Below, piece after piece: positions 2 to 7,804 of a DNA stretch of 55,735 nt. Positions within the stretch are counted from its first letter, which is position 1; each line of letters starts with the position of its first letter. The stretch comes from Verrucomicrobiota bacterium (lineage in GTDB: Bacteria; Verrucomicrobiota; Verrucomicrobiia; JABWAM01; JAHFSZ01): assembly GCA_023265515.1 (NCBI GenBank), contig JAHFSZ010000005.1, positions 1 through 55,735 on the forward strand, in the 5' to 3' direction. The translations under genes and the position numbers were made by a program. The notes beneath the pieces were generated by a model. The model was not told the DNA's origin and made no database searches. It was given only the letters and a program-made list of their open reading frames with translations.

Positions 2-214
2 ATCGTCGTTGGCGGCACCAATAGCAACAACACGCGCGAGCTAGCCGAGACCTGCCGGCTTCACTGTCCGAGGGTTTACCGGGTTGAGAGCGCAGTCGAA
101 TTGCGGGCTGAATGGTTTTCAGGCGCCAAAACCGCCGGCCTGACCGCTGGAACGTCGACCCCCGACGGGGTCATCGCTGAAGTTGAGCTGGCTTTGAAAA
201 AAGTCGCCGCATAA
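2..214 (+). CDS. ispH: 4-hydroxy-3-methylbut-2-enyl diphosphate reductase, C-terminal 70 aa (5'-truncated by the window edge)
   Basis: My translation from nt 2 reads IVVGGTNSNNTRELAETC...GLTAGTSTPDGVIAEV*, matching the IspH/LytB C-terminal motifs VVGGxNSSNT and G(V/L)TAGxSTP. Stop TAA at 212-214. Not listed in the ORF track. Confidence 0.9.
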   Translation: MVVGGTNSNNTRELAETCRLHCPRVYRVESAVELRAEWFSGAKTAGLTAGTSTPDGVIAEVELALKKVAA

Positions 215-234
215 AAATGAAAACCAACTAACCG

Positions 235-1839
235 ATGCGTGTTCTGCTCCTCAACCCGCCACATCCTGCCGTGGCAAGCCGCTGCCACAGGGGCCAGATG
301 CCGCCAGCCGGCCACCTTGCAGTGGGCGGGCCTCTGATCGATTCCGGGCACCAAGTTCGACTGATTGATGCGGAGACCGGCCCGCTTTCAATATCCCAAG
401 CCGTTGCCGCTGCGACTTCATGGGCGCCGGACGTCGTCCTTGTTGGCCACTCGGGCTCTACCTCAGCTCACCCGACCATTGCTGAACTGGCTCGCGCGTT
501 AAAGATGGCGAACCCCCGCGTTCCGATTGTCTATGGCGGATTGTATCCCAGTTACCACGCGGAGGAGGTTCTATCCAACCATCACGAGATCGACGTCATT
601 ATCCGCGGCGAAGGCGAGGACACGACACGTCGGCTTGTCGCTGCTCTCGAATCAGGCGATTGCCTCAGCACGGTAAATGGAATCGCCTACCGTGATCACG
701 GCGTGCCACGCTTGACTGCCCCCGCACTCACCATTCAAAACCTCGATGCTTTTCGCGTTGGCTGGGAATTGATCGAGAACTGGGACGACTACCAATATTG
801 GGGCGCCGGCCGCGCTGCGGTAATCCAATTTTCACGCGGCTGCCCACACCGCTGCAGCTACTGCGGCCAACGCGGCTTTTGGACCCGCTGGCGCTATCGT
901 GATCCTCACAAGGTCGCGGCACAGATCGGGTGGCTTTACCGCACACACCGGGTCGGCTTCGTCGATCTGGCCGATGAAAATCCAACCACCTTGCCGCGGC
1001 TTTGGCGGACCTTCCTGGAGGCGCTCATCTCGCAGAATGTCCCGGTTCAGCTCGTCGGAACCATGCGGGCGAGCGACATTGTTCGAGACGCGGAGTTCCT
1101 GCATCTTTACAAGAAAGCCGGCTTCTCCCGCATCCTCATGGGCATGGAGAGCACCGATCCTGACACTCTCATGAAAATCCGGAAGGATGCCACAACCACG
1201 ACAGATCGCGAGGCAATCAAACTCCTGCGTCAGCACGATATCCTTTCCCAAGCCGCATATGTCGTCGGGTTCGAGGAAGAGACGGACCGCCAGTTTCTCC
1301 ACGGACTGCGGCAGCTCTTGTTATATGATCCCGACCAGGTCAATGCGATGTACGTCACGCCTCACCGCTGGACACCGTTTTACCGCGAGAGCGCCGGACG
1401 CCGAGTCGTTGAGCTGGACAAAAGCCGGTGGGACTATCGCCACCAGGTACTGGGCACCAGGATTCCTTCCTGGCGAGTGTTCCTCTGGGTAAAGCTGACC
1501 GAGGCCATTTTGCAGCTCCGTCCTCGCGCCTTGTGGCGGGTGATCGCGCATCGCGATCTCAAAATCCGCAGGGCGCTCCGATGGTGCTACGGCGTTGGCG
1601 CGCGCGCCTGGCTCTTTGAGATGCGCTCGTTCCTGCGTCCGCGGCGGCGTCAGCGTTCGCCCCGTCAAGTGACCCTTGCGCAGTTCTGGGGCGCACCGGG
1701 AGACGCTCATGAAGAAGCCTTGAGACCTGCGGAACGCCCCGCTCGCTCCCATGTTGCGGGCGCCTCTAAAACAGGTTACAATCCCGTGTTGATGAAAATC
1801 GGAACTCCCGTTCCCACCGTGCAGGTTTCGAGCGCATGA
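235..1839 (+). CDS. Cobalamin-binding (class B) radical SAM protein, BchE/HpnP-like superfamily; substrate unknown
   Basis: N-terminal B12-binding Rossmann domain (LLNPPH..MPPAG; PDVVLVG; PIVYGGLYPS) followed by the CxxxCxxC motif RGCPHRCSYC, then DLADEN and RILMGMES. Confidence 0.88.
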   Translation: MRVLLLNPPHPAVASRCHRGQMPPAGHLAVGGPLIDSGHQVRLIDAETGPLSISQAVAAATSWAPDVVLVGHSGSTSAHPTIAELARALKMANPRVPIVYGGLYPSYHAEEVLSNHHEIDVIIRGEGEDTTRRLVAALESGDCLSTVNGIAYRDHGVPRLTAPALTIQNLDAFRVGWELIENWDDYQYWGAGRAAVIQFSRGCPHRCSYCGQRGFWTRWRYRDPHKVAAQIGWLYRTHRVGFVDLADENPTTLPRLWRTFLEALISQNVPVQLVGTMRASDIVRDAEFLHLYKKAGFSRILMGMESTDPDTLMKIRKDATTTTDREAIKLLRQHDILSQAAYVVGFEEETDRQFLHGLRQLLLYDPDQVNAMYVTPHRWTPFYRESAGRRVVELDKSRWDYRHQVLGTRIPSWRVFLWVKLTEAILQLRPRALWRVIAHRDLKIRRALRWCYGVGARAWLFEMRSFLRPRRRQRSPRQVTLAQFWGAPGDAHEEALRPAERPARSHVAGASKTGYNPVLMKIGTPVPTVQVSSA

Positions 1840-2501
1840 TCGCACGGCACATCCATCACGCGCTTGCGCAGGTCCAGGAGCTGCAGCACCAGCTTCTAGA
1901 AAAGCAACGGTTCAAGGGCTACTCGGGACGCGCCCGGGCGGCGACCGGATGCCTGGCGCTGCTGGCAGCCATCGTGATGTCCGCGGATTCGTTTCCCCAG
2001 AAGGCATCATGGCACGCCGTTGGATGGGGCATTGTGTTTCTACTTGGCGCAGCGATCAACTTCGGCGCGCTGATCTATTGGTTCTTCACCGATCCGGATG
2101 ATATTTCGCGCGGAAAAACCGCGGGACGTGATGTGAGGCGCCTCAAACCGCTGATCGACGCATTCGGCCCGCTTTTCGTCGGCGCGGTTCTGACGTTCGT
2201 GTTTCTTTACGAAGGCCAGCACCGGCTGCTGCCCGGGATGTGGATGTGTCTTTTCGGGCTGGCGAACCTGGCGTCACGCCACGTGCTGCCCCGCGCCATT
2301 TTCCTGGTGGGACTCTTCTATATTATCTGCGGCACCGCCTGCCTGCTCTGCCCGGACATTTCATTCACCGATCCCTGGCCGACCGGCATCGTTTTTTTTG
2401 TGGGTGAATGGGCGGGCGGCTGGATCCTTCATTACGACAACGTCACCAACGCCTCGTTCAACCAGTTGATCGGGCGTCTGTTGGGAAGAGAGGAGCCATG
2501 A
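1836..2501 (+). CDS. Multi-pass (~6 TM) integral membrane protein, function unknown
   Basis: Several hydrophobic segments; ATGA overlap with the radical SAM stop. Confidence 0.75.
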   Translation: MIARHIHHALAQVQELQHQLLEKQRFKGYSGRARAATGCLALLAAIVMSADSFPQKASWHAVGWGIVFLLGAAINFGALIYWFFTDPDDISRGKTAGRDVRRLKPLIDAFGPLFVGAVLTFVFLYEGQHRLLPGMWMCLFGLANLASRHVLPRAIFLVGLFYIICGTACLLCPDISFTDPWPTGIVFFVGEWAGGWILHYDNVTNASFNQLIGRLLGREEP

Positions 2502-2884
2502 GCGATAAAAGTGAAAATCCTTATGAGGCCCTGGAGAAGATTTTTCACGAGCCAAACCGGCTCGCGATCATGTCGGCGCTCTGCCGCTCGAGCCATGGGC
2601 TCACCTTCAATGATTTGAAGGAGGAGTGCAGCCTGACCGATGGCAACCTGAGCCGGCACCTGAAGGCGCTGGAGGAGGCCGGCGCAATTGCCATCAAGAA
2701 AACCTTTGTCGGCGTCAAACCGCAGACCACCGCGCTGTTGTCTGCGAGGGGGCGGCAGAACTTCCTGGACTATCTGAAGGCGCTGGAAGAAGTCCTCAAA
2801 AAGGCCGCCGAGGCGATCGGGCCGGAAAAAAAGGAAGCCCGCCATCCACTGCGCCTCGGAAAAACTGCACGAGCCAAATCATAG
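2498..2884 (+). CDS. Winged-helix (ArsR/MarR-like) transcriptional regulator
   Basis: IFHEPNRLAIMSAL...LTFNDLKEECSLTDGNLSRHLKALEEAG motif. ATG at 2498 overlaps the upstream TGA and follows an AGGAG RBS. Confidence 0.88.
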   Translation: MSDKSENPYEALEKIFHEPNRLAIMSALCRSSHGLTFNDLKEECSLTDGNLSRHLKALEEAGAIAIKKTFVGVKPQTTALLSARGRQNFLDYLKALEEVLKKAAEAIGPEKKEARHPLRLGKTARAKS

Positions 2885-2890
2885 GATCCC

Positions 2891-4138
2891 ATGAAATGGC
2901 AGCGGACCGCTGGAAAGAATCTGTCGAATCCCCGACAAATGAATTCCAAAGACCGGGTCCGCCGCCTCGCACGCCCTGGCATCGCCCTTCTCCTTTTCCT
3001 CGCCGGGGTCTGGTTGATCCCTCACCGGTGGTGTTCGCGGGATTCCGGCGACTGGTACCGGGGCGACCCGGCAGTCCAGAAAAAACTGGCCGCCGGAGTG
3101 GAGCAATGGATCATCAAAGATCTTCAGCGCGACAACTATTCCACGGGCAACCGTCAGTTCAACGGCGAATGGCTCTTCGGAACCTACCTGATGGCCGGCC
3201 TGGGTTACGGCCAGACAGCCCTCGAGCATCCTGAATGGAGGACCCGCCATCTCCAGCTGATGGAACATTGCATCGACCGGATACTGACCCCGGGGGTCCG
3301 GGCCTTCGACCGGGAAAGCTGGCGCAACGATCCCATCGACTCGCTGGACGAGGACTCCGATCATGCTGCGTATCTGGGATACTTCAATCTCCTTCTGAGC
3401 CTCCACCGTCTTCTTGAACCCAAGTCTAAATACTCACAACTCAACGACCGGATCACGGAGGCTCTTTGCCGGCGCATTCACAACAGCCGGACGGGTCTCC
3501 TATCCACCTATCCGGGAGAAACGTACCCGGTAGACAACTGTGCGGTGATTGCGTCGATCGGACTCCACGACCGGGCGACCGGAACGAATCACCGCGAACT
3601 GCTTATGGCATGGGAAGCGCGACTCCGTGAAAAATACATCGACCCCACGTCAGGGCTGCTCTTCCAAGCCGTGGACTCGCTCGACGGCTCGCCGATCGAC
3701 GCCCCGCGTGGATCGGGGACGACGCTTGGCGCCTACCTGCTGTCATTTTCCCATCCGGGTCTTTCGCGGGAGCTTCATATGGCCGTAAAACGGCAGCTAT
3801 TCCGGACATGCCTCGGATTCGGCGCGGTGCGCGAATATCCCGTCTCGTTCTCGCGCGGACGGGGCGACATCGATTCGGGTCCCGTGCTCTTCGGCATCGG
3901 AATTTCACCGACGGGTTTCCTGGTTTCCACTTCAAGAATCTTCGGGGATCGATCCATGTTTTCCGACCTCTACGGGACAGTCGATCTCTTTGGCGCGCCC
4001 TTGGATGGCAACAACGGGCTCACGTTCGTGACGGGGGGACCGATCGGAAACGCCATCATGTTTGCGATGCTCACGGCCCAGCCGGAGGACGGACGGACGG
4101 ACGAAGCGCGTCCTTTGAGCGCCGGGGAGGGCTCATGA
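2891..4138 (+). CDS. Linalool dehydratase/isomerase-like (alpha/alpha)6-barrel protein A, N-terminal membrane anchor/signal
   Basis: The segment YLGYFNLLLSLHRLLEPKSKY...TYPGETYPVDNCAV...LHDRATGTNH...IDPTSGLLF parallels LinD (YKGHLNLMYGLYQLV...CEPDNYFVQCNSVA...YDRLHGTDY...IDPERGAFY, recalled from memory). Clear paralog of the next gene. Confidence 0.72.
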   Translation: MKWQRTAGKNLSNPRQMNSKDRVRRLARPGIALLLFLAGVWLIPHRWCSRDSGDWYRGDPAVQKKLAAGVEQWIIKDLQRDNYSTGNRQFNGEWLFGTYLMAGLGYGQTALEHPEWRTRHLQLMEHCIDRILTPGVRAFDRESWRNDPIDSLDEDSDHAAYLGYFNLLLSLHRLLEPKSKYSQLNDRITEALCRRIHNSRTGLLSTYPGETYPVDNCAVIASIGLHDRATGTNHRELLMAWEARLREKYIDPTSGLLFQAVDSLDGSPIDAPRGSGTTLGAYLLSFSHPGLSRELHMAVKRQLFRTCLGFGAVREYPVSFSRGRGDIDSGPVLFGIGISPTGFLVSTSRIFGDRSMFSDLYGTVDLFGAPLDGNNGLTFVTGGPIGNAIMFAMLTAQPEDGRTDEARPLSAGEGS

Positions 4139-5331
4139 AGCACGCTGTCCTTCTCCGGGCCCTCGGGTCCTTGATCGCATTGGGCGCCGCCGCGGCCATT
4201 TGGTTTCCGGCCATGCATTTGTTTTTTCGCCCCAACATGGATGATTACTTCGCCGTCAAGAGCGGCATTTCGCCGAAAGCCAGGGCAATCGCCGCCTACC
4301 AGCTCGATCTCTGGAAAGACCCGGGAAAACGCACCCGCGAGGTCGCGCGGATGCGAACAAGCAACGCCGAGTGGGATTTCATGGGCCGGACCTTTCTGGT
4401 TCTCTCGCTCGCGAACATGGCCCTGCACGAGCCGGACCGCCAGGAGGAGTATCTTAAAGTCATGGACCGAATCATCGAGGAAACCATCCGGTTCGAGAAC
4501 GACAAGGGCATCTATTTTTTCCTGATGGATTATGCCAGGGAGGGTAAATTCAGCTCGGACCAGCCCGCCAGCATCTTCATTGACGGCGAGACCGCCCTCA
4601 TGCTTGGCGCCCGCCGGATGGTCCGTGAGCGGACGGATTACAAGCCGATGATGAAGCAGCGGATCGACCGCCTGGTCAAGATGATGACCAAAGGTCCCGT
4701 GCTTTGCGCGGAGAGCTACCCGAATGAATGCTGGATGTTCTGCAATACGGTCGCCCTGGCAACGCTCCGGATTTCCGACGTCCTGGACGGTTCCGACCAT
4801 TCGGCATTCCTGAAAAAATGGGTCGCGACGGCAAAAACCAAGCTGATCGATGTCAAAAGCGGCCTGCTTTTTTCCAGTTTCGGCCTTGACGGAACTCCCC
4901 TCGACGGACCGGAAGGCTCGTCCATCTGGATGGTATCGCATTGCCTGCAAATCGTGGACCCGTCCTTCGCCAATGACCAGTACGCCAGAGCGCGGAAGGA
5001 ACTCGCAACAACGGTCTTTGGCTTTGGCTACGCCAAGGAATGGCCGGCCTGCTGGCGCGGCTCCCCCGACATCGATTCGGGGCCGATCGTGCCGGTATTG
5101 GATGCGAGCGCGGGCTCGAGCGGCTTGGCGCTCATCGGGGCAAGCGCCTTCAAGGATTCGGTCTACCTAAAGGCGTTGATCACGTCGCTCAACTTCGCGG
5201 CCTTTCCCAATAAACAGAACAACACCCTCCGCTACTGTGCAAGCAACCAGGTCGGCGATGCGGTCATTCTCTATTCCCTGGTCAACGGACCTCTCTGGGA
5301 CAAGGTGTTGCGCGCCAAGAAGGCATCATGA
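4135..5331 (+). CDS. Linalool dehydratase/isomerase-like (alpha/alpha)6-barrel protein B, N-terminal membrane anchor/signal
   Basis: ATGA overlap at 4135-4138 and hydrophobic N-terminus. ESYPNECWMFCNTVA...LDGSDH...LIDVKSGLL motif. Shares GFG...E(Y/W)P...DIDSGP with protein A. Confidence 0.72.
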   Translation: MKHAVLLRALGSLIALGAAAAIWFPAMHLFFRPNMDDYFAVKSGISPKARAIAAYQLDLWKDPGKRTREVARMRTSNAEWDFMGRTFLVLSLANMALHEPDRQEEYLKVMDRIIEETIRFENDKGIYFFLMDYAREGKFSSDQPASIFIDGETALMLGARRMVRERTDYKPMMKQRIDRLVKMMTKGPVLCAESYPNECWMFCNTVALATLRISDVLDGSDHSAFLKKWVATAKTKLIDVKSGLLFSSFGLDGTPLDGPEGSSIWMVSHCLQIVDPSFANDQYARARKELATTVFGFGYAKEWPACWRGSPDIDSGPIVPVLDASAGSSGLALIGASAFKDSVYLKALITSLNFAAFPNKQNNTLRYCASNQVGDAVILYSLVNGPLWDKVLRAKKAS

Positions 5332-5332
5332 C

Positions 5333-5680
5333 ATGAACCCCATTCAACCACGCGCCCACTGGCTGGACCGCATGTTTTCCCCGCACATGCTTCTTCGACG
5401 CGCCGTGATGTTAAGCCTTGTCTTTCTGCTCTGCGAAGTCGCCGGGCTCAGGGTTTACACATGCATCCTTTGCGGAACTTCGCCGGACGGTCAGCCGGTC
5501 GGCGTTTTGGCTGTCTTCCTCACCGGTTTCTACCTTTTCTTCTACTTTGCGTTCATCTGCGCAGTCCCCGTTCTCCTCCTGGCATCCCTCATTCTCCTAA
5601 CAACGAAAAGACTATCGAAAATCTCGAAAACTTCCACGGAGACGGACCATGAGAAACAAGATATCAACTCTGTTCGTTGA
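5333..5680 (+). CDS. Small 2-TM membrane protein, hypothetical
   Basis: ATG 1 nt after the upstream stop; two long hydrophobic stretches. Confidence 0.65.
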   Translation: MNPIQPRAHWLDRMFSPHMLLRRAVMLSLVFLLCEVAGLRVYTCILCGTSPDGQPVGVLAVFLTGFYLFFYFAFICAVPVLLLASLILLTTKRLSKISKTSTETDHEKQDINSVR

Positions 5681-5960
5681 AACCGGCCTACTCCTCTTGA
5701 TTCACTTCGTTTTGATCAACTGGATGGCGGAGGATAACCCGGTTGCCAGAATTTTGGCGCTGGGGGAGCATACGCCCTTATGGGTGTCGACGCTCTGCGT
5801 GATTTTCCTGGGAGTCAGAATCCTGCTCCTCGTCCTGCTTCCGGGCATCATCGCGCTACGGCTTGGAATGATCCTTTTCGACCAGCTCGGAAGGCAACGA
5901 CCGGAGCCGGTTCCCGAGACAGCCCCTACTCAGGGCTCCACTTCTGCTTCCGCTCAGTGA
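5649..5960 (+). CDS. Small 2-TM membrane protein, hypothetical
   Basis: Overlaps the previous gene, two hydrophobic stretches; last gene of the operon. Confidence 0.6.
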   Translation: MRNKISTLFVETGLLLLIHFVLINWMAEDNPVARILALGEHTPLWVSTLCVIFLGVRILLLVLLPGIIALRLGMILFDQLGRQRPEPVPETAPTQGSTSASAQ

Positions 5961-6303
5961 TGAGCCGCTGATATTTCTCTTTCTGATCGTCACTCAAGAG
6001 CTGCATCACACGGTGGTCGAAGTCATCGACGATCTTGACGAAACGCGGCTGTGCTTCGCCGCGCAGAGTTTGAAGCTGCGCGTGGGAATCCATGATGATT
6101 TCATGGAGCTTGGCCTTCTGCTGTTCGTCCATGCCCAGCTTGCCCGTGATCCGCTTTTCGATCCGGTCACGGACCCACTCCGGGTTCGCGGCAGCTTGCC
6201 GGATGAAATGGATCGTCATCCGGTGGCCGGCGATGACGCCGACCAGCGCTCCCGCGAGGAAGATTGCCGCCACCCACAACCATGCTTTCCATCGATTCAT
6301 CAT
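5926..6303 (-). CDS. Spy/CpxP/ZraP-like periplasmic helical protein (heavy-metal sensor-like)
   Basis: N-terminal TM (WLWVAAIFLAGALVG), then KLGMDEQQKAKL...LLSDDQKEKY (LTxxQ-like repeats). Start moved to MMNRW. Confidence 0.7.
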   Translation of the reverse strand: MMNRWKAWLWVAAIFLAGALVGVIAGHRMTIHFIRQAAANPEWVRDRIEKRITGKLGMDEQQKAKLHEIIMDSHAQLQTLRGEAQPRFVKIVDDFDHRVMQLLSDDQKEKYQRLITERKQKWSPE

Positions 6304-6320
6304 GATCTTGTTCGCTTTCT

Positions 6321-6611
6321 CTATGAGTAAAAAGTCCAGAACCACGGGTCCGTCAGCTTCGTCCAATCCTGGGCCGCGCCCCAGTCGCCGCCGAACAGGA
6401 GCCAGTCGCCGCAGGCTAGAAGAATAACCGCCGCCATCGCCGGCGCCAGGAACTGGCGGGCCGCGATCGCGATCAATTCAAAAGGCGATGACGTCTCCAC
6501 TTTCACGCCAGCAATCGCCGAAACAACGCGGCTTACAAATGTGTTCGAGGGAACCGGAGACTCTTCCCCGCGCGCCGCCTCGAACAATTTTTTCAGTTTA
6601 TCATCACTCAT
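6321..6611 (-). CDS. Putative anti-sigma factor-like single-TM protein
   Basis: Directly downstream of an ECF sigma; short N-terminal helix plus one TM. Confidence 0.6.
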   Translation of the reverse strand: MSDDKLKKLFEAARGEESPVPSNTFVSRVVSAIAGVKVETSSPFELIAIAARQFLAPAMAAVILLACGDWLLFGGDWGAAQDWTKLTDPWFWTFYS

Positions 6612-6635
6612 GGCACATCCATTCTGAAATCCTCT

Positions 6636-7205
6636 TCAATAACAGGATCGTTCATGGCCCATCCGCTCCAAAATTTTCTTCAACTTGGCTCGCGCCCGGT
6701 GGGCCCGGACGCGGACCGCGACGCCTGACCAGCCTGTCATGCGCCGGATCTCCTCGACGCTCCGCTCCTCGATCTCGAGAAGCGTGATCACGATGCGGTC
6801 CTCCGGTGAAAGTTTCGACAGGGCCAGCCCAAGCACCTCGCGCGCGTCGCGCACTCCGATCTCAGAAGGCCGGTCGCTCCGCAGCCAGTCGAGAACCGAA
6901 TCGCCGAGCGAGGAAAAGGGAACTTCCTGTCGCAGGCGTTTCTGTTTTCGCAAATGATCGAGCGCGGTGCGGACGGCAATCCGGGAAATCCAGTGCTCGA
7001 AGGGCGCGCGGCCGTCGAACTGGGCGAAGGCCCGCCATGCCTTGATGAAAGTCTGCTGGGCGAGGTCCTCCACGCGTTGGATGTCGCGCTCGTAGCGCCC
7101 CAGGATCGCGAAAACCCTCCGCTGGTGCCGCTGGACCAACTCTCCGAAGGCATCCGTTGAGCCTTGGCGGACTTCTTCGATGATTTCATGCTCATCCTCG
7201 CTCAT
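6636..7205 (-). CDS. ECF-family RNA polymerase sigma factor (sigma70 region 2 + region 4)
   Basis: DAFGELVQRHQRRVF, EDLAQQTFIKAWR, FEHWISRIAVRTALDHLRK, LSKLSPEDRIVITL..., GVAVRVRAHRARAKL. Confidence 0.92.
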   Translation of the reverse strand: MSEDEHEIIEEVRQGSTDAFGELVQRHQRRVFAILGRYERDIQRVEDLAQQTFIKAWRAFAQFDGRAPFEHWISRIAVRTALDHLRKQKRLRQEVPFSSLGDSVLDWLRSDRPSEIGVRDAREVLGLALSKLSPEDRIVITLLEIEERSVEEIRRMTGWSGVAVRVRAHRARAKLKKILERMGHERSCY

Positions 7206-7211
7206 TCACGG

Positions 7212-7303
7212 CGTGGTTCGTGGATCGTGAATCGTGGATCGAAGCCGCCCGTGGTTTGCTGTCACTCTTCTTACGAACCACGAAACCCGAATCACGATCC
7301 CCG
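7212..7303. repeat. Degenerate heptamer tandem repeats in inverted arrangement (hairpin-forming)
   Basis: cgtggtt-cgtggat-cgtgaat-cgtggat (7212-7239) faces cgaacca-cgaaacc-cgaatca-cgatccc (7274-7301). Confidence 0.7.
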
Positions 7304-7306
7304 AGT

Positions 7307-7804
7307 TCAGTCATTGAGCGCAGGATGGCTTCCAACATTCTTGAGGAACCAGTCGATGTTGTCATCGATCCGTTTCTGGAACTCCGTGACCTTGTCGTGC
7401 TGCTCCTTGGTCAGGATCGGGCTGATTTTGGCATAAACTTTGGCCCTTTCAACAGCCAAATCCGATTCGATGGCCGCCACCTTCGCGGACGCCGCGCGGA
7501 CCGCCCTCTCGTCAACCTTGCCGTTGGACGATTGCTGAATCACACCGCGCATCTCGACGCGGGCCTGGTGCAGGTCCGACAACTTGGACAGAACGACATC
7601 CTTCTCCTCATTGCGGACTTTCTTGATTTGCGCGACCTGATCCTCGTTGAGGTCGAGTTTTTCCGCGATGCGCTGGGCGATCAAGCCGTGAAACCGGCCC
7701 GATCCCAGGGCACCCGTCTTGGCGGCCTGCGACTCATAGACGAAAGCGCCGCCCGCCATCAACAGCACGGCGGCGGCGATCCATGTTATTCTTCGTGTTT
7801 TCAT
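7307..7804 (-). CDS. Spy/CpxP family periplasmic chaperone
   Basis: Signal peptide, KLDLNEDQ and ILTKEQ (LTxxQ) motifs. Confidence 0.85.
   Translation of the reverse strand: MKTRRITWIAAAVLLMAGGAFVYESQAAKTGALGSGRFHGLIAQRIAEKLDLNEDQVAQIKKVRNEEKDVVLSKLSDLHQARVEMRGVIQQSSNGKVDERAVRAASAKVAAIESDLAVERAKVYAKISPILTKEQHDKVTEFQKRIDDNIDWFLKNVGSHPALND

Follow-up and report, generated by a model that had tools for sequence, protein, structure and literature searches.

Two membrane-anchored LinD-fold barrels of a Verrucomicrobiota bacterium belong to separate modules with paralogous micro-protein partners

Introduction

What might two neighbouring relatives of linalool dehydratase-isomerase do in a bacterium when neither keeps the catalytic residue set of that enzyme, and do they act together? 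The question is raised by a 55,735-nucleotide stretch of Verrucomicrobiota DNA, referred to here as the window (assembly GCA_023265515.1, contig JAHFSZ010000005.1, positions 1 to 55,735 of the forward strand). Two overlapping genes near its beginning, A and B, encode proteins that resemble linalool dehydratase-isomerase (LinD, also called Ldi) of Castellaniella defragrans (EC 4.2.1.127 / 5.4.4.4; PDB 5g1u, 5hlr and 5i3t; Pfam PF18566). LinD is a soluble periplasmic homopentamer with its active site between two subunits, and its minimal unit is a dimer; its residues C170 and C179 (C171 and C180 in the numbering used below) are acid/base thiol catalysts, and the C170S and C179S variants fold but are inactive (PMC6600392). 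A second family member, Lis of Thauera linaloolentis 47Lol, is membrane-anchored and about 20% identical to Ldi (PMC4791888).

An earlier note on this DNA, written from the letters of the sequence, had suggested that A and B form one heteromeric enzyme with new chemistry. We find instead that each barrel belongs to its own two-gene module, in which it is paired with a small membrane protein, and that the two modules are paralogous and independent of each other. The genomic anatomy is firm, while the chemistry is a guess. The reading that we favour, with a probability of roughly 0.45, is that the barrels are cofactor-free acid/base enzymes that face the periplasm and have as substrate a lipid of the membrane, probably an isoprenoid, with A and B working in separate modules.

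Results

A and B are related to each other and to LinD

The two barrels and the segments discussed below are the following.

2891–4138, plus strand: barrel A, 415 residues, an N-terminal transmembrane anchor followed by a LinD-fold (alpha/alpha)6 barrel
3506–3538, plus strand: A loop TYPGETYPVDN, residues 206–216, equivalent to LinD CEPDNYFVQCN
3866–3883, plus strand: A motif DIDSGP, residues 326–331, aligned with LinD DDADGG
4135–5331, plus strand: barrel B, 398 residues from the ATG at 4135, an N-terminal signal anchor followed by a LinD-fold barrel
4714–4746, plus strand: B loop SYPNECWMFCN, residues 194–204
5068–5085, plus strand: B motif DIDSGP, residues 312–317

The start of B overlaps the stop of A in the tetranucleotide ATGA. 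BLASTP aligns the two proteins at 25% identity over 318 residues (E 3e-34), and the alignment holds the motifs SGLL, LDGxPxDxPxGS, GFG..E(Y/W)P and DIDSGP. Orthologs from different phyla are 50–62% identical, compared with the 25% between A and B. A tree rooted on LinD places 82 A and 14 B sequences in separate clades, with local support of 0.73 for A and 0.998 for B. Together, these comparisons support the view that A and B are old paralogs.

Similarity to LinD is detected at the level of both sequence and predicted structure. Against the Pfam family Ldi (PF18566, cut-off 26.1 bits), A scores 24.2 bits, slightly below the cut-off, and B scores 32.2 bits, above it; the Pfam search of the two proteins returned nothing but Ldi. 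In a phmmer search of the PDB, LinD chains are the only matches (E 1.5e-7 for A and 4.8e-6 for B). Profiles built from 28 A orthologs and 25 B orthologs match LinD in the PDB at E values of 1.7e-13 and 3.3e-14, respectively, with the register unchanged. AlphaFold2 models of A and B have a mean predicted local distance difference test of 89.2 and 89.0 and a predicted template-modelling score of 0.88 and 0.90. When these models are compared with the PDB using Foldseek, LinD alone is found at E values near 1e-12, with template-modelling scores of 0.71–0.82, and ranks 1–27 are all LinD chains. The folds that come next are GH76, the AGE epimerases, GH88/105 and complement C5, at E values of 1e-5 or higher and with template-modelling scores that are mostly about 0.43–0.55; the highest score outside LinD is 0.62, for one GH76 chain.

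The barrels are members of large families. A has more than 1200 homologs, the best 120 of which are 51–68% identical, with ‘hypothetical’ as the label of any that a source names; B has more than 2200, with the best 120 being 53–63% identical. The A profile matches 1,851 clusters at 50% identity, 412 of them with E <= 1e-30, among 1.84 billion cluster representatives. The holders of A and B are mostly bacteria of the Planctomycetes–Verrucomicrobia–Chlamydiae (PVC) group, but the distribution is patchy and extends to Myxococcota and candidate phyla. Full-text literature searches, including searches for the family in the PVC group or in Myxococcota, yielded no paper on these proteins.

The LinD catalytic residues are replaced by other conserved residues

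In the HMMER register, the LinD loop C171-E-P-D-N-Y-F-V-Q-C180-N corresponds to T206-YPGETYPV-D215-N in A and to S194-YPNECWMF-C203-N in B. The catalytic residues C171, C180 and H129 of LinD therefore align with Thr, Asp and Tyr (Y164) in A and with Ser, Cys and Glu (E152) in B. LinD C101, which caps the active site in a disulfide with C48, aligns with T133 of A; HMMER leaves the first 70 residues of LinD unaligned, as it does the matching part of B. Because the LinD catalytic set is not kept, neither A nor B is expected to be a linalool dehydratase operating by the LinD mechanism.

The residues found at these positions are conserved and not decayed. Among 28 A orthologs that are 51–58% identical to A and come from Verrucomicrobiota, Planctomycetota, Lentisphaerota, Kiritimatiellota and other phyla, Y207, P208, D215, N216, H158, G163, N166, D328 and G330 are invariant, and conservation reaches at least 90% at E210, Y164, D326, I327, S329 and P331. 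Among 25 B orthologs, the invariant residues are E193, S194, Y195, P196, E198, W200, F202, D150, G151 and E152, together with D312, D314, S315, G316 and P317 of the DIDSGP motif; at C199, C203 and N204 the conservation is likewise 90% or more. Asp-His replaces Cys-Asn at the C180 position in some B orthologs (P0134 and L122). Four remoter membrane-linked subfamilies have (T/A)EW, YP(G/D)E and D(I/V/M)D(S/A)GP in common, with Asp at the C180 position in three of them and Asn in the fourth. Taken across the family, the alignments point to a carboxylate-based pocket at the LinD site, to which the cysteine of B is the exception.

Most of what the earlier note had read from the sequence is borne out by these results. 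It had described A and B as old paralogs sharing the motifs listed above, and had proposed a similarity to LinD that could have failed to appear in a proper comparison; structure comparison returns LinD first. The loop register that it had proposed, with both cysteines lost in A and the C180 equivalent kept in B, is reproduced by HMMER, as are the Tyr and Glu residues at the H129 position. Its statement that neither protein is a true linalool dehydratase agrees with the replacement of residues whose substitution by serine inactivates LinD. The conservation of DIDSGP across homologs, which it had recommended checking, extends to both barrels and into the remoter subfamilies.

Each barrel has its own micro-protein partner

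The genes that follow B encode two small membrane proteins.

5333–5680, plus strand: X116, small membrane protein and partner of B, starting 2 nucleotides past the B stop
5649–5960, plus strand: small94, two-helix transmembrane hairpin micro-protein and partner of A, located here behind B and X116

The partnerships were identified from related loci. We collected 80 A loci, one genome per species, with flanks of up to 10 kb; with the window included, the set comprises 81 loci (individual loci and genomes are designated below by L and G numbers). Clustering of the neighbours of A revealed small94, a gene of about 94 codons for which a hidden Markov model (HMM) has a match in 69 of the 81 loci, always on the same strand as A. 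Gene calls in the related loci are our own open reading frame (ORF) calls, and a partner scored as absent in divergent loci, such as those of Myxococcota, may reflect the sensitivity of the HMM. In the related loci, small94 lies directly 3' of A in 68 of 80, that is, in all 68 that have it, and the window is the sole locus of the 81 in which A and small94 are separated. Of 12 B loci, 11 have X116 immediately 3' of the barrel gene, as do the loci of two further genomes that contain only B (L121 and L122).

Pairwise BLAST detects no similarity between small94 and X116, but their profiles align over 80 columns with an hhalign probability of 97% (E 8.8e-11). The consensus of small94 consists of a basic N-terminus, a short loop with the sequence (S/A)xGxHxP and a second helix with the pattern F...R......LPG. 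A and B thus belong to two independent, paralogous two-gene modules, each composed of a barrel and a micro-protein of about 90–115 residues with two transmembrane helices. Since the profiles of the micro-proteins are homologous, the unit of barrel plus micro-protein was duplicated as a whole. In the window, the two modules are nested in the order A-[B-X116]-small94, whereas elsewhere, when both are present, they are arranged in tandem as B-X116-A-small94 (e.g. L010). In L002 (6226–9186) and four other loci, a 986-residue protein with an MSEP-CTERM sorting domain (TIGR04286, E 8e-130) is encoded just 3' of the module formed by A and its micro-protein.

A and B are inherited independently

The distribution of the two barrels bears directly on whether they form a single enzyme. 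B is located near A in four of the 80 related loci (L002, L010 and L027, and a fragment detected by tblastn in L026), in the order B then A; L027 lies on the same contig as L124, in genome G092. About 9–10 of 30 A genomes contain a B ortholog. Eight of these orthologs are full-length (E <= 1e-107) and are located on another contig or megabases away from A, and fragments are present in G027. In a phylum sample of 150 evenly drawn genomes that are at least 90% complete, G128, G131 and G167 have only A, G095 and G056 have only B, and G092 has both; G092 and the genome studied here are the only ones in that comparison in which A and B occur together. The pairing of A with B is not obligate.

These observations are difficult to reconcile with the heteromer of the earlier note, in which A and B would form one periplasmic enzyme with a composite site at the A/B interface, and that proposal is not supported. 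The ATGA overlap, from which co-translation may be presumed, speaks for such an enzyme, as does the location of the LinD active site at a subunit interface in a minimal dimer (PMC6600392), and the genes are sometimes adjacent where both occur, as in the window, in L002, L010 and L027 and in the partial copy of L026. However, the 10-kb flanks of 76 of the 80 A loci lack B, about 20 of the 30 A genomes have no B ortholog and eight have it elsewhere, high-quality genomes exist with one barrel and not the other, and each barrel has a paralogous micro-protein of its own. We therefore consider a heteromer quite unlikely. The other part of the same proposal, an outward-facing acid/base enzyme, is retained in what we find the most plausible reading.

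The barrels are anchored in the membrane and are fused or linked to a 10-helix protein in some genomes

Each barrel is preceded by a single N-terminal helix, which spans residues 19–48 in A and 2–30 in B in the AlphaFold2 models, and the anchors are conserved. The segment that precedes the anchor helix is rich in Lys and Arg. Fusions are present in six loci, where an A or B barrel makes up the C-terminal half of a longer protein (690–870 residues). The N-terminal portion of these fusions, about 365 residues, is Trp-rich, contains about 10 transmembrane (TM) helices and carries the motifs FEYLNRFVQNWYY, FWEMWN and LPFGLEC; the 10 TM helices are followed by a basic linker, an 11th helix and then the barrel. 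Because of the positive-inside rule, as applied to the Lys/Arg-rich segments, and because of the layout of the fusions, the barrels are predicted to face the periplasm.

About 16 more loci encode the 10-TM domain separately, upstream of the barrel, bringing the loci with either arrangement to about 22 of 81. Examples are found in L010 (7296–9650), L039 (8498–11104), L040 (8843–11128) and L001 (3271–4386). Among the best 150 cluster representatives matched by the A profile, 5 have lengths compatible with a fusion. The 10-TM protein also accompanies the remoter Ldi-like barrels. It has more than 5,700 homologs, and those listed with a source-given name are all ‘hypothetical’; searches with it gave zero matches to Pfam (E <= 10) or NCBIfam (E <= 1). 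We considered TM221, a membrane protein of the window described below, and the membrane proteins up246 and c4_233 as remote homologs of or substitutes for the 10-TM protein, and rejected them at hhalign probabilities below 2%; Pfam and NCBIfam searches with up246 and c4_233 were empty. Upstream of the barrels, about 10 loci also encode a pair of neighbouring membrane proteins, each of about 240 residues, which are paralogous (hhalign 100%) and have no family (e.g. L010 5379–6871 and L018 8544–9994).

The barrel genes lie within an unbroken string of eight genes

Positions 2–5960 of the plus strand contain eight genes that are joined by overlaps or by gaps of at most 20 nucleotides, in the order ispH, BchE-like radical S-adenosylmethionine (SAM) gene, TM221, helix-turn-helix (HTH) gene, A, B, X116 and small94. 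The remaining features of the string are listed here.

2–214, plus strand: 3' end of ispH, truncated by the contig end and heading the string; frame 2 reads IVVGGTNSNNTRELAE...KKVAA and then a stop
235–1839, plus strand: BchE-like B12-binding radical SAM enzyme (Pfam B12-binding and Radical_SAM)
1836–2501, plus strand: TM221, polytopic membrane protein with no family, coupled to the radical SAM gene by an ATGA overlap
2498–2884, plus strand: ArsR-type winged-helix regulator (Pfam HTH_34, E 1.7e-21), overlapping TM221
5954–5971, plus strand: weak terminator-like hairpin where the string ends

The frame-2 product of positions 2–214 is, we presume from knowledge of the family, the C-terminus of IspH. 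Its stop codon is separated from the radical SAM gene by 20 nucleotides. No ispH gene was found beside A in the 80 other A loci, nor in the B loci, and we rejected the linkage as a trait of the family: among the loci fetched it is local to the window. An IspH-like stretch 5' of B in L120 was also rejected, since Pfam gives it no support.

The radical SAM protein scores 477.7 bits against the NCBIfam model for BchE, which has a cut-off of 481.35. B12-type radical SAM genes occur near A, on the same strand and nearly always upstream, in about 10 of the 81 loci, and a radical SAM gene of any type in 16 of the 81, with subfamilies that differ from that of the window. We noticed no photosynthesis genes near the radical SAM gene of the window. 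Annotation pipelines may label its product as an anaerobic Mg-protoporphyrin cyclase.

As judged with an HMM, TM221 is encoded upstream of A in 15 of the 81 loci, every time immediately 5' of the HTH gene, so that the HTH_34 gene and TM221 occur together in about 19% of loci. The two may constitute a membrane-sensor/regulator pair. The pair is found upstream of Ldi-like modules in several phyla (e.g. L010 4243–5304 and L120 152–1155). TM221, X116 and small94 matched zero Pfam or NCBIfam families.

Terminator-like sites in the region are no more numerous than expected from shuffled sequence, and the position of the hairpin at 5954–5971 is the only suggestive feature of it. An antisense ORF at 3970–4950 and other overlapping ORFs were set aside as shadows of high GC content, because conservation at the protein level is located in the plus-strand frames. 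A convergent block on the minus strand (5926–7804) adjoins the operon and encodes a 146-residue protein (5926–6366), a 96-residue protein (6321–6611), an extracytoplasmic function (ECF) sigma factor (6636–7205) and an LTXXQ/Spy-like periplasmic protein (7307–7804). By its position, the 96-residue protein is a possible anti-sigma factor, and the block resembles an envelope-stress unit.

Squalene-hopene cyclases in the phylum sample

A true squalene-hopene cyclase (SHC) is encoded in 9 of the 151 genomes of the phylum sample. The genome that contains the window (2.2 Mb) encodes one on contig C40 (16133–17089, minus strand; E 2.3e-142, within a 676-residue frame) and probably makes hopanoids. Eleven genomes of the sample, G056, G092, G167 and G170 among them, encode a protein of 570–800 residues that scores only 58–108 bits on the SHC C-terminal model and may belong to a divergent family resembling class II cyclases. 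These eleven genomes include four of the 14 that hold Ldi-like barrels, where about one would be expected; relatedness of the genomes may explain the difference.

Discussion

Comparison with known members of the family

The fold family PF18566 and its membrane-bound member Lis were known already. A and B have in common with LinD the (alpha/alpha)6 barrel, the conserved positions of the C171–C180 loop, the H129 helix and the DDADGG/DIDSGP loop, and, as predicted above, the periplasmic side of the membrane. They differ from it in the replacement of C171, C180 and H129 and, in A, of the capping-disulfide residue C101. LinD is soluble and has a cleaved signal peptide, whereas A and B retain a conserved N-terminal membrane anchor; unlike LinD, they also have a dedicated micro-protein with two TM helices, are accompanied elsewhere by the 10-TM protein, and lack a monoterpene-catabolic context. 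What is new relative to LinD is thus the candidate carboxylate pocket, the retained anchor, the co-duplicated micro-protein subunits and the 10-TM companion family.

Lis is, like A and B, a member of the Ldi family at the membrane, and it illustrates that the fold can work there on hydrophobic substrates. Its gene stands alone and encodes four TM helices at the N-terminus, ahead of an Ldi-like domain with a predicted cytosolic location. A and B each have a single anchor helix (about 10 plus 1 in the fusions) and a micro-protein partner, and their orientation is probably periplasmic. Lis is set apart here on the basis of its description.

A possible mechanistic analogy is offered by class II terpene cyclases such as SHC (DxDD) and by the unsaturated uronyl hydrolases of GH88/GH105, in which an Asp or Glu general acid protonates a C=C bond within an alpha/alpha barrel. 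We find the DxD(S/A)GP motif reminiscent of the DxDD of class II terpene cyclases. Homology is not detectable in either case: SHC is outside the top 50 Foldseek matches of A and B, and GH88/105 is matched at E values of about 1e-3 to 1e-4 with template-modelling scores near 0.5.

A working model for the barrels

In the model that we favour, each barrel would work with its own micro-protein and, in many genomes, also with the 10-TM protein. The substrate would be a lipid embedded in the membrane, most likely an isoprenoid alkene or alcohol at the outer face of the inner membrane, and the micro-protein, together with the 10-TM protein where present, would supply the membrane interface or deliver the substrate. 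Carboxylates would take over the role of the LinD thiols in a hydration or dehydration, an allylic isomerisation or a protonation-initiated rearrangement of a C=C bond or of a tertiary or allylic alcohol. A and B may catalyse two related but distinct reactions, or differ in substrate preference. We propose an isoprenoid because the sole characterised relatives, LinD and Lis, are terpene-alcohol enzymes, because ispH heads the operon in the window, and because radical SAM enzymes of lipid-modifying types recur near A.

Several points weigh against this model. The substrate assignment is a guess by analogy, and the linkage to ispH is unseen at the 80 other loci. The radical SAM gene, the TM221–HTH pair and the 10-TM protein each occur in only a minority of loci, and the 10-TM protein was found neither by a genome search nor by a six-frame HMM search of this genome (88% complete). 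The positive-inside rule that suggests the topology was applied by eye, and the conserved residues would ring one pocket if they are placed by their alignment to LinD. Carboxylate-rich (alpha/alpha)6 pockets are typical of glycan-active enzymes as well. Finally, a true SHC is missing from most A or B genomes; hopanoids are therefore unlikely to be the common substrate, and we rejected them as a general one.

The alternative that survives best, though we think it unlikely, is that the barrels are glycan-active enzymes (hydrolases, lyases, epimerases or enzymes resembling unsaturated-uronate hydratases) whose substrate would be a polysaccharide, either periplasmic or linked to a lipid, that the 10-TM partner transfers or transports. 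The nearest folds after LinD are the GH76 mannanases, the AGE-family epimerases and GH88/GH105, and the predicted pockets are full of conserved Asp, Glu and aromatic residues. The holders are mainly PVC-group bacteria, many of which are glycan specialists. In our view, the fusions, in which a linker helix joins 10 TM helices to a domain predicted to face outward, also resemble the AT3-SGNH or GT-C enzymes. On the other hand, LinD is by far the better structural match (E 1e-12 versus 1e-5 or higher, template-modelling score about 0.8 versus about 0.5), zero glycan-enzyme Pfam families were matched, the conserved neighbours include no glycosyltransferase or polysaccharide gene, and the 10-TM protein has no Pfam or NCBIfam family at the thresholds given above.

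The A/B heteromer, weighed above with the locus counts, ranks lower, and on a par with it we place the idea that the barrels are not enzymes but membrane-tethered binding, scaffold or sensor domains, for instance lipid receptors with TM221 and the HTH regulator as their signalling route. In favour of this idea, the barrels have lost the LinD catalytic residues, and a regulator and a membrane protein are co-located with them at 15 loci. Those 15 are, however, a small fraction of the loci, and many polar positions of the LinD pocket are strongly conserved across phyla in two paralogous families, a pattern typical of catalysis. Least probable by a wide measure is that they are true monoterpene dehydratase-isomerases that use linalool, geraniol or myrcene and have an altered active site: LinD is the top match in fold and sequence, and Lis shows that divergent membrane-bound members can use linalool (PMC4791888), but C171, C180 and H129 are replaced and the C-to-S variants of LinD are inactive (PMC6600392), the neighbours are not monoterpene-catabolic genes but ispH, radical SAM, membrane-protein, HTH, ECF sigma factor and LTXXQ genes, and the patchy spread over the PVC group, Myxococcota and candidate phyla, with membrane partners, is unlike that of a carbon-source pathway.

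Significance

To our knowledge, LinD is among very few cofactor-free enzymes that add or remove water at unactivated terpene double bonds, and it is usually seen as an isolated curiosity. The present analysis indicates that its fold is widespread, spanning at least 1,851 clusters defined at 50% identity, in a membrane-anchored form with obligatory-looking micro-protein partners.

A bolder version of the model, which we advance tentatively and regard as rather doubtful, is that the barrel, its micro-protein and, where present, the 10-TM protein constitute widespread, undescribed inner-membrane machines that remodel polyprenyl or other isoprenoid lipids from the periplasmic side, with carboxylates as the acid catalysts of a hydration, an allylic isomerisation or a cyclisation. 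A dedicated operon for isoprenoid-lipid modification would, in this bacterium, link two of these units directly to ispH and to a BchE-like B12 radical SAM enzyme. If the barrels do modify isoprenoid lipids, they would add a new branch to the membrane-lipid chemistry of bacteria and supply new hydratase and isomerase biocatalysts. Even otherwise, the barrel and its micro-protein provide a clean, testable case of unannotated small membrane subunits.

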